Below are positions 6,534 through 17,291 of a DNA stretch of 64,000 nucleotides, piece by piece. The stretch is from the NCBI RefSeq assembly GCF_011045215.1, contig NZ_CP049201.1; one strand, 5' to 3'. The notes below the pieces were generated by a model that saw only the letters and a list, made by a program, of their open reading frames with translations, did not search any database and was not told the DNA's origin. A program made the position numbers and the translations under genes. The DNA comes from Escherichia coli. GTDB lineage: Bacteria; Pseudomonadota; Gammaproteobacteria; Enterobacterales; Enterobacteriaceae. Numbering within the stretch: position 1 is the stretch's first letter; each line of letters begins with the position of its first letter.

Positions 6534-6626
6534 GGTGAGGTGGCCGAGAGGCTGAAGGCGCTCCCCTGCTAAGGGAGTATGCGGTCAAAAGCTGCATCCG
6601 GGGTTCGAATCCCCGCCTCACCGCCA
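6534..6626 (+). tRNA. serV: tRNA-Ser (anticodon GCU)
   Basis: GGTGAGGTGGCCGAGAGGCTGAAGG...GGTTCGAATCCCCGCCTCACCGCCA with long variable arm; matches E. coli serV from memory. Confidence 0.95.
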
Positions 6627-6629
6627 TTT

Positions 6630-6706
6630 GCATCCGTAGCTCAGCTGGATAGAGTACTCGGCTACGAACCGAGCGGTCGGAGGTTCGAATCCTCCCGGAT
6701 GCACCA
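6630..6706 (+). tRNA. argV: tRNA-Arg (anticodon ACG), copy 1
   Basis: GCATCCGTAGCTCAGCTGGATAGAGTACTCGGCTACGAACCGAGCGGTCGGAGGTTCGAATCCTCCCGGATGCACCA, 77 nt. Confidence 0.95.
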
Positions 6707-6905
6707 TATTCTCCGAAATCTTCAGCAATGAAGATATCGAAGAGGTAGCGGAATTAACCGCAGGCACCAGGAAGGATAACGTTGCTTTAGCAACGGCCCG
6801 AAGGGCGAGCCGCAAGGCGAGTAATCCTCCCGGATGCACCATCTCTTACTTGATACGGCTTTAGTAGCGGTATCAAAAAATCTGCAGTAAAGTAAGTTTC
6901 CCGAT

Positions 6906-6982
6906 GCATCCGTAGCTCAGCTGGATAGAGTACTCGGCTACGAACCGAGCGGTCGGAGGTTCGAATCCTCCCGGATGCACCA
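6906..6982 (+). tRNA. argY: tRNA-Arg (anticodon ACG), copy 2
   Basis: Identical 77-nt tRNA-Arg sequence; symbol assigned by order only. Confidence 0.93.
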
Positions 6983-7181
6983 TATTCTCCGAAATCTTCA
7001 GCAATGAAGATATCGAAGAGGTAGCGGAATTAACCGCAGGCACCAGGAAGGATAACGTTGCTTTAGCAACGGCCCGAAGGGCGAGCCGCAAGGCGAGTAA
7101 TCCTCCCGGATGCACCATCTCTTACTTGATACGGCTTTAGTAGCGGTATCAAAAAATCTGCAGTAAAGTAAGTTTCCCGAT

Positions 7182-7258
7182 GCATCCGTAGCTCAGCTGG
7201 ATAGAGTACTCGGCTACGAACCGAGCGGTCGGAGGTTCGAATCCTCCCGGATGCACCA
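7182..7258 (+). tRNA. argZ: tRNA-Arg (anticodon ACG), copy 3
   Basis: Identical 77-nt tRNA-Arg sequence; symbol assigned by order only. Confidence 0.93.
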
Positions 7259-7457
7259 TATTCTCCGAAATCTTCAGCAATGAAGATATCGAAGAGGTAG
7301 CGGAATTAACCGCAGGCACCAGGAAGGATAACGTTGCTTTAGCAACGGCCCGAAGGGCGAGCCGCAAGGCGAGTAATCCTCCCGGATGCACCATCTCTTA
7401 CTTGATACGGCTTTAGTAGCGGTATCAAAAAATCTGCAGTAAAGTAAGTTTCCCGAT

Positions 7458-7534
7458 GCATCCGTAGCTCAGCTGGATAGAGTACTCGGCTACGAACCGA
7501 GCGGTCGGAGGTTCGAATCCTCCCGGATGCACCA
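7458..7534 (+). tRNA. argQ: tRNA-Arg (anticodon ACG), copy 4
   Basis: Identical 77-nt tRNA-Arg sequence; symbol assigned by order only. Confidence 0.93.
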
Positions 7535-8851: not shown

Positions 8852-10435
<1,584 letters not shown>

Positions 10436-10443
10436 CAGAAAAG

Positions 10444-10516
10444 AAAAAGGCCACTCGTGAGTGGCCAAAATTTCATCTCTGAATTCAGGGATGATGATAA
10501 CAAATGCGCGTCTTTC
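10444..10516 (-). ncRNA. micA: MicA (SraD) small regulatory RNA with 3' terminator hairpin GGCCACTCGTGAGTGGCC
   Basis: Reverse complement reads GAAAGACGCGCATTTGTTATCATCATCCCTGAATTCAGAGATGAAATTTTGGCCACTCACGAGTGGCCTTTTT, matching MicA; sigma-E-like -35 GAACTC / -10 TCTGA lie upstream on the minus strand (~10517..10555). Confidence 0.9.
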
Positions 10517-10584
10517 ATATACTCAGACTCGCCTGGGAAGAAAGAGTTCAGAAAATTTTTAAAAAAATTACCGGAGGTGGCTAA

Positions 10585-11100
10585 ATGCCGTTGTTAGATA
10601 GCTTCACAGTCGATCATACCCGGATGGAAGCGCCTGCAGTTCGGGTGGCGAAAACAATGAACACCCCGCATGGCGACGCAATCACCGTGTTCGATCTGCG
10701 CTTCTGCGTGCCGAACAAAGAAGTGATGCCAGAAAGAGGGATCCATACCCTGGAGCACCTGTTTGCTGGTTTTATGCGTAACCATCTTAACGGTAATGGT
10801 GTAGAGATTATCGATATCTCGCCAATGGGCTGCCGCACCGGTTTTTATATGAGTCTGATTGGTACGCCAGATGAGCAGCGTGTTGCTGATGCCTGGAAAG
10901 CGGCAATGGAAGACGTGCTGAAAGTGCAGGATCAGAATCAGATCCCGGAACTGAACGTCTACCAGTGTGGCACTTACCAGATGCACTCGTTGCAGGAAGC
11001 GCAGGATATTGCGCGTAGCATTCTGGAACGTGACGTGCGCATCAACAGCAACGAAGAACTGGCGCTGTCGAAAGAGAAGTTGCAGGAACTGCACATTTAG
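10585..11100 (+). CDS. luxS: S-ribosylhomocysteine lyase (autoinducer-2 synthase)
   Basis: 171-aa [28 protein letters not shown]... with HTLEHL metal-binding motif. Confidence 0.97.

Positions 11101-17110: not shown

Positions 17111-17291
<181 letters not shown>

Follow-up and report, generated by a model that had tools for sequence, protein, structure and literature searches.

MicA and its sigma-E-type promoter in the gshA-luxS spacer of Escherichia coli, and a terminator hairpin that is leaky on the gshA strand

MicA of Escherichia coli K-12 (SraD, b4442, RF00078) is a small RNA of the sigma-E response through which ompA and further mRNAs of the envelope are repressed and degraded in an Hfq-dependent manner (PMC1851643). 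Its strict dependence on sigma-E has been demonstrated both in Salmonella and for the exact K-12 sequence that occurs in the DNA analysed here; specifically, MicA is undetectable in delta-rpoE cells and rapidly induced by overexpression of rpoE, while fusions remain at background without rpoE (PMC1851643, PMC1804206). RybB, the other conserved sigma-E small RNA, resembles MicA in having a sigma-E promoter, in being a short Hfq-binding RNA, in repressing omp mRNAs through a 5' seed and in its role in the envelope-stress feedback loop (PMC1804206). However, RybB belongs to another RNA family and another locus; it has no antisense relation to the leader of an adjacent mRNA, and MicA differs in having an additional cis activity on luxS (PMC2956633). 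MicA itself, its control by sigma-E, the omp mRNAs that it targets and its position antisense to luxS are all already known and have been studied for two decades.

A different kind of system with which the locus can be compared is the bidirectional terminator of convergent gene pairs in E. coli, as treated in the collision model of the Liu lab. The micA/gshA locus is like these terminators in that a convergent pair has a common hairpin and overlapping 3' ends. It is unlike them, comparing the two by description, in that its two sides are unequal: on the MicA strand there is a U-tract and a textbook intrinsic terminator, on the gshA strand a leaky element. A SEnd-seq list of E. coli bidirectional terminators has reportedly been given by Ju et al. 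2019.

The DNA analysed here, referred to as the window, is a stretch of 64,000 nucleotides from E. coli. A scan of the whole 64-kb window against Rfam at gathering thresholds gave a single match to MicA (RF00078), on the minus strand at 10445..10516. This match scores 83.9 bits (gathering score 41; E = 1.4e-11) and extends untruncated over model positions 1-75 of 75. The minus-strand sequence, GAAAGACGCGCAUUUGUUAUCAUCAUCCCUGAAUUCAGAGAUGAAAUUUUGGCCACUCACGAGUGGCCUUUUU, is that of canonical MicA. An earlier note on this DNA, made from the sequence alone, had placed MicA in the gshA-luxS spacer and had proposed an Rfam search as the check; the placement is borne out by this search, which returned the RF00078 match over the full model rather than no hit, and nothing was found against the identification. 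The gene and its two neighbours are as follows.

8879..10435, plus strand: gshA, glutamate-cysteine ligase (TIGR01434, 917 bits)
10441..10516, minus strand: MicA sRNA gene (Rfam RF00078, K-12 annotation, Term-seq)
10585..11100, plus strand: luxS, S-ribosylhomocysteine lyase (NF002602, 349 bits)

The first nucleotide of MicA (+1) is the G at 10516, and its 3' end falls at 10445 by Rfam, at 10444 by the K-12 annotation and at 10441 by Term-seq (GGCCUUUUUCUU). The curated K-12 record carries the ncRNA micA, b4442, at 2814802..2814874, which corresponds to 10516..10444 of the window when K-12 coordinates (x) are converted as w = 2825318 - x, a conversion verified on the gshA stop. Over its 149 nt the gshA-luxS spacer shows no difference from that of E. 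coli K-12 MG1655, so that experimental coordinates from K-12 can be transferred base for base. Neighbours, strands, promoter and terminator are likewise the same, and it is in the flanking gshA and luxS coding sequences, rather than in the element, that 20 positions differ from K-12. The window element is E. coli MicA itself, with the sequence of the K-12 reference and with all the defining features that can be assessed in silico, and the earlier description of the arrangement as a known one is accurate, as K-12 carries micA at the equivalent position. The analysis presented here covers identity, structure, promoter motif and conservation, synteny, complementarity of the seed to ompA and asymmetry of the terminator; the literature on the identical sequence supplies the sigma-E dependence, the Hfq dependence, the regulation of targets, the processing of luxS transcripts and the mapped RNA ends. 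The element at 10441-10516 on the minus strand is almost certainly MicA in the full sense, an Hfq-dependent sRNA of the sigma-E regulon of ~72-76 nt with ompA-type targets, whose hairpin is leaky on the gshA strand.

The spacer is found in 5,423 of 5,426 complete E. coli genomes. A PGAP-annotated E. coli record with an identical spacer (NZ_CP049204.1, 1637-1785) shows gshA and luxS only and leaves micA unannotated, in agreement with the earlier view that the sRNA is invisible to ORF-based annotation, although the K-12 record has b4442. The annotation value of the finding is small, as micA is missing from the PGAP record and yet the spacer is near-universal in complete E. coli genomes; a scan which recovers micA therefore behaves correctly. 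For the other top spacer matches the search output likewise gives gshA and luxS alone.

micA is antisense to both neighbours, being convergent with gshA and divergent from luxS, and 5-9 nt separate the gshA stop codon from the 3' end of MicA. Conservation was assessed in a sample of 120 loci, one genome per species, each chosen for containing the 23-nt 5' core of MicA without a mismatch. The sample includes Escherichia, Citrobacter, Enterobacter, Klebsiella, Yersinia, Serratia, Pantoea and Erwinia, as well as Dickeya, Pectobacterium, Edwardsiella, Hafnia, Rahnella and others; it yielded 114 unique sequences, aligned without gaps and anchored on +1, and a MicA alignment of 90 distinct sequences. 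The arrangement luxS(-)/micA(+)/gshA(-) was present across Enterobacterales in all 109 informative loci, the sequence of the remaining 11 running out within 180 nt. With both ORFs on the plus strand and MicA on the minus strand, the sRNA is antisense to gshA and luxS, as had been claimed. From the luxS ATG to the MicA +1 the median distance is 72 nt (116 loci), and from the edge of the gshA stop to +1 it is 81 nt (62 loci), which places the stop directly against the MicA terminator. Two small ORFs across the spacer, of 46 aa on the plus strand and 48 aa on the minus strand, were dismissed, neither being supported; the minus-strand ORF was set aside because its ATG begins upstream of the MicA +1. 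Further upstream on the plus strand, at 6534-7534, a tRNA-Ser(GCT) is followed by four tRNA-Arg(ACG) at an exact 276-nt spacing, a cluster equivalent to the serV-argVYZQ operon, which precedes yqaB-yqaA-gshA.

The predicted fold of MicA reproduces the two hairpins that have been published for it, with an energy of -20.5 kcal/mol (z = -2.98), and 0 of 200 dinucleotide shuffles folded as well. From the 5' end onward, an unpaired stretch is followed by a stem-loop, an A/U-rich linker, a GC-rich hairpin and a U-tail, with the following positions.

10493..10510, minus strand: single-stranded 5' seed of MicA, nt 7-24 (ompA duplex, conservation)
10474..10493, minus strand: stem-loop 1 of MicA, nt 24-43, CAUC-C-CUG/AAUU/CAG-A-GAUG (Rfam consensus, MFE fold, alignment)
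10467..10473, minus strand: A/U-rich linker AAAUUUU, nt 44-50, ahead of the terminator (alignment)
10449..10466, both strands: palindromic hairpin GGCCACU/CACG/AGUGGCC, the stem of the MicA intrinsic terminator (terminator scan, folds)
10441..10448, minus strand: U-tail of MicA, UUUUUCUU (114 loci)

Among the 90 distinct sequences, 98.6% of the cells of the family structure are paired, compared with 28-52% when the partners are slid, and in the helix of stem-loop 1 (helix 2 of the alignment) 97.5% of cells are paired, with three pairs altered on both sides. Covariation is nevertheless thin, with four pairs changed on both sides in 14 cells, because most pairs never vary. Nucleotides 3-25 are invariant in these sequences except for nt 16, and nt 2 is ~99% conserved; since the search pattern was MicA nt 5-27 its conservation follows by construction, so that only nt 1-4 are independent, and the sample tilts to close relatives. 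The linker is A/U-rich throughout the alignment, with T48 and T49 invariant, and we take nt 44-50 to be the expected region of contact with Hfq.

Upstream of the gene, a sigma-E-type promoter had also been claimed, and the following elements were found on the minus strand.

10542..10550, minus strand: sigma-E -35 element TGAACTCTT, at -34..-26 (consensus match, conservation)
10523..10528, minus strand: sigma-E -10 element GTCTGA, at -12..-7 (consensus match, conservation)
10556..10566, minus strand: AT-rich element tttttttaaaa, at -50..-40, upstream of the -35 element (conservation)

Read along the minus strand, the promoter consists of TGAACTCTT, 13 nt, GTCTGA, the six nucleotides gtatat and the +1 G at 10516. 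Its core boxes are TGAACTC, with the -35-like GAACTC at 10549..10544, and the -10-like TCTGA at 10527..10523, with 16 nt between them. Papenfort et al. (PMC1804206) quote GGAACTTTT and GTCAAA as the sigma-E consensus, with which the -35 element agrees at 7/9 positions and the -10 element at 4/6. The window holds one copy of the loose pattern GAACT-N17-TCWRA, where 0.38 would be expected, and 31 of 100 shuffles hold at least one; such a frequency is at chance level in 64 kb, and the motif count alone was rejected as evidence. The weight of the motif comes instead from its being placed precisely in register with the start of MicA, and from the comparative data. Across the 114 loci the AAC at -32..-30, T-11, C-10, A-7 and T-1 are 100% conserved, followed by the TT at -27/-26 (97-99%), T-9 (96%) and G-12 (95%), while the spacer from -25 to -13 is weakly conserved and near-random, at 0.1-0.9 bits per position with the lowest values at -24..-17. 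[quoted passage not shown] This tract, noted upstream of micA by Udekwu & Wagner (PMC1851643), is also conserved in the 114 loci, with T at -46 in 100% and positions -50..-45 at 86-100%. On the plus strand the tract at 10556-10566 is an A-rich stretch just 5' of the luxS ribosome-binding site, and because the same bases precede that site the constraint on the tract could stem from either strand.

When sigma-E is active, RNA polymerase carrying sigma-E would be expected to initiate at G10516 from TGAACTCTT-N13-GTCTGA and to end MicA transcription at the GGCCACU/AGUGGCC hairpin and U-tract. The unstructured nt 7-24 of the RNA would then pair with the ribosome-binding regions of outer-membrane-protein mRNAs, for example ompA, and this seed pairing would block translation and make mRNA decay faster. 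The first 24 nt of MicA (paired nt 7-24) are predicted to form a duplex of -21.7 kcal/mol with the K-12 ompA leader at -22..-5 (GGAUGAUAACGAGGCGCA), a value equalled in 3 of 1000 shuffles, and the pairing spans the ribosome-binding region. A duplex of -44.5 kcal/mol computed with full-length MicA was discarded in favour of the 24-nt seed result, as it disregards the hairpins of MicA itself. As far as complementarity can tell, the pairing of the seed with ompA agrees with the published Hfq-dependent translational repression and decay. Regulation in trans by MicA of ompA, phoPQ and further targets is well documented.

On the plus strand, two luxS transcript ends mapped by others fall in or next to this region.

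10253 (G), plus strand: distal luxS start P1 (-332, sigma-S dependent), inside gshA (Udekwu 2010, PMC2956633)
10502..10503, plus strand: 5' end of the short luxS mRNA species R3 (Udekwu 2010, PMC2956633)

The P1 transcript spans the entire micA region and is shortened in a MicA- and RNase III-dependent manner, and the R3 5' end overlaps the MicA 5' end by 14-15 nt (PMC2956633; window positions mapped here). The level of LuxS protein is unaffected by overexpression of MicA, and a polycistronic gshA-luxS message has not been reported (PMC2956633). Since its gene lies antisense inside the gshA-luxS spacer, MicA is perfectly complementary to the long luxS 5' leaders, and these are cut in dependence on MicA and RNase III.

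The claim of a shared terminator is the one part of the earlier note that reaches past textbook knowledge. The hairpin begins 14 nt past the gshA stop. On the MicA strand, a 7-bp stem with five GC pairs is followed by TTTTTCTTTT (UUUUUCUUUU after the stem), and at 114 of 114 unique loci 6-7 of the 8 nt that follow the stem in the MicA sense are T; by its GC-rich hairpin, its U-tract and a Term-seq end within the tract, this strand is an intrinsic (Rho-independent) terminator. The hairpin at 10449-10466 also forms in gshA-sense RNA, where the plus-strand fold has an energy of -22.8 kcal/mol (z = -4.18), but the terminator scan reported it on the minus strand only. After the stem the gshA strand reads AAAAUUUCAU (tail AAAATTTCAT), and a U-tract was found there in 0 of the 114 loci: the gshA-sense tail begins with AAA in nearly all loci and with GAA in two, and has a mean of 2.1 T and a maximum of 4 T in 8 nt. 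Judged by sequence, the hairpin is no canonical intrinsic terminator for gshA in any species examined. The outer 6 bp of the stem, GGCCAC/GUGGCC, are invariant in the 114 loci, from Escherichia to Yersinia, Dickeya and Pantoea, and the seventh, innermost pair covaries as A-U, U-A and G-C. Such rigidity is unusual for a terminator stem, and the constraint may come from both strands or from Hfq binding; an artefact of the search pattern was considered and rejected, as no locus failed the pattern.

Mapped RNA 3' ends were taken from the Term-seq tables in supplementary file 1 of Adams et al. 2021, in which each string gives 50 nt upstream, the 3'-end base and 10 nt downstream, a register that we verified on SgrS. 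The label "primary" in these tables denotes an end within 50 bp downstream of a gene and describes position only, with no mechanism implied. For MicA the three Term-seq conditions agree on a 3' end at 2814877 (window 10441) (Adams et al. 2021); the gshA-sense ends vary with condition as follows.

10457, plus strand: gshA-sense 3' end in LB OD 0.4 (K-12 2814861), in the hairpin loop; 34.6k reads, with a minus-strand floor of ~23k
10404, plus strand: gshA-sense 3' end in the second sheet, presumably LB OD 2.0 (K-12 2814914); 306k reads
10471, plus strand: gshA-sense 3' end in the third sheet, presumably M63 (K-12 2814847), GGCCAAAAU, 5 nt past the stem; 178k reads

In the second sheet, the end at 10404 lies inside the gshA ORF, 31 nt before the stop, and none is listed at the hairpin (Adams et al. 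2021). This end appears in that condition only, which is presumably stationary phase. The gshA and MicA transcripts would overlap by 17 nt with the end at 10457 and by 31 nt with that at 10471, the 31-nt overlap being centred on the hairpin. The Rho-termination table of Adams et al. 2021 also has a region antisense to gshA at ~10073 on the minus strand (K-12 2815245, +), some 370 nt beyond micA in its own direction of transcription, which suggests that some transcription passes the MicA terminator and is then halted by Rho.

The earlier note had held that the MicA terminator doubles as the gshA terminator, and this claim stands in part. The hairpin does mark gshA-sense ends in two of the three Term-seq conditions. 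However, the gshA strand is without a U-tract in 114/114 species, the remaining condition has no end at the hairpin, one of the two ends that were seen lies in the loop and near the detection floor, and luxS transcripts that start within gshA read through. The most fitting description of the hairpin on the gshA strand is that of a 3'-end element that is non-canonical and leaky. The manner in which the gshA 3' end forms is something we infer, and our reading is that the hairpin helps to define gshA 3' ends in some conditions, with pausing or termination, collision, exonuclease stalling and MicA-guided cleavage as the candidate mechanisms. MicA is also complementary to the final ~30 nt of the gshA 3' UTR, and the same hairpin on the gshA strand, leaky and without a U-tract, would contribute to the mRNA 3' end.

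To one account of these ends we give a little less than an even chance, namely that they are processing products, made when transcription reads on toward luxS and the RNA is then either trimmed to the stem by a 3' exonuclease or cut by RNase III where it is paired with MicA. The stem is GC-rich and stable, and the plus-strand fold has the energy given above. The end at 10471, 5 nt past the stem, is at a typical stalling site of exonucleases, and the end at 10457, being in the loop, cannot be an intrinsic termination site. Cleavage of plus-strand RNA in dependence on MicA and RNase III is known at this locus for the luxS leaders (PMC2956633), and most ends that are neither intrinsic nor Rho-dependent are attributed to processing by Adams et al. 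2021. The label "primary", though, is a positional one, and the data also fit pausing or termination at the hairpin.

More tentatively, the hairpin may be a genuine bidirectional terminator of the convergent micA and gshA genes, at which pausing and both head-on and rear-end collisions release polymerases, although on balance we doubt it. The pair is convergent, with the hairpin just beyond the gshA stop, and in the third Term-seq condition the gshA end lies 5 nt past the stem and the MicA end 8 nt past its other side, giving the 31-nt overlap. This is the geometry that the Liu lab describes for such terminators, which are Rho-independent and unlike intrinsic ones, and the lack of any reported gshA-luxS polycistronic message (PMC2956633) is in keeping with it. 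The 3' ends, however, overlap across the hairpin in one Term-seq condition (10441/10471) and not in the second, where a gshA-sense end at the hairpin is missing, and the LB OD 0.4 end, with its 34.6k reads against a floor of ~23k, is in the loop. Moreover, the gshA strand, on which the scan reported no terminator, has no U-tract at any of the 114 loci and at most 4 T in 8 nt, and the luxS P1 transcripts, starting at -332 inside gshA, traverse the hairpin (PMC2956633). Read-through thus occurs on the gshA strand, and on the other strand some read-through is suggested by the Rho region downstream of micA. A literature search on micA as a bidirectional terminator found nothing relevant.

Less probable still, and in our view unlikely, the hairpin could serve as a condition-dependent gate, at which MicA transcription (through collision) or MicA RNA (through pairing and RNase III) sets the 3' end or stability of gshA mRNA and the read-through into luxS. 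This reading rests on the perfect complementarity between the gshA 3' UTR and the 3'-terminal ~31 nt of MicA. If true, glutathione synthesis and the production of AI-2 would both be linked to envelope stress; the searchable literature, RIL-seq included, gave no report of regulation between MicA and gshA. The loose ends at this locus are the formation of the gshA 3' end at a hairpin without a U-tract and the effect of the 31-nt MicA/gshA overlap, and a regulatory effect of that overlap, if real, would add modestly to what is a well-known system.

That the locus acts chiefly in cis, with MicA serving to control luxS, and possibly gshA, through antisense pairing or interference with transcription, and the trans regulation of omp mRNAs being secondary, is very improbable: the synteny with luxS and gshA in 109/109 informative loci, the 14-15 nt overlap of the micA and luxS starts, and the full complementarity to MicA of the long luxS leaders, which are processed with RNase III (PMC2956633), would suit such a role, but LuxS protein does not change on MicA overexpression (PMC2956633), conservation of MicA, the terminator apart, is highest in the 5' seed, which matches targets in trans, and the action of MicA on these targets is well documented.

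A few minor observations concern the plus strand and the rest of the window. A sigma-70-like site, ATGATA-N18-TATACT (9/12), lies at 10494-10523 on the plus strand, inside the micA 5' end and promoter; it was weighed as a candidate for the proximal luxS promoter, but its predicted start, ~10530, disagrees with the published 5' end of the short luxS transcript at 10502/3. The strong Term-seq 3' end at 10404 (+) is 151 nt 3' of the luxS P1 start at 10253, and these two ends could delimit an ORF-internal RNA of ~152 nt; we make no claim for it, as its fold is no better than that of shuffled sequences (z = -1.05). Elsewhere, the Rfam scan gave two adjacent matches to naRNA4 (CssrE) on the minus strand, at 17114-17191 and 17214-17291 (73.9 and 75.8 bits), which are repeats of the REP/BIME type. 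A lone tRNA with a CAT anticodon at 39588-39663 (+) is called tRNA-Met by ARAGORN and could be a tRNA-Ile2 of the ileX/ileY type.
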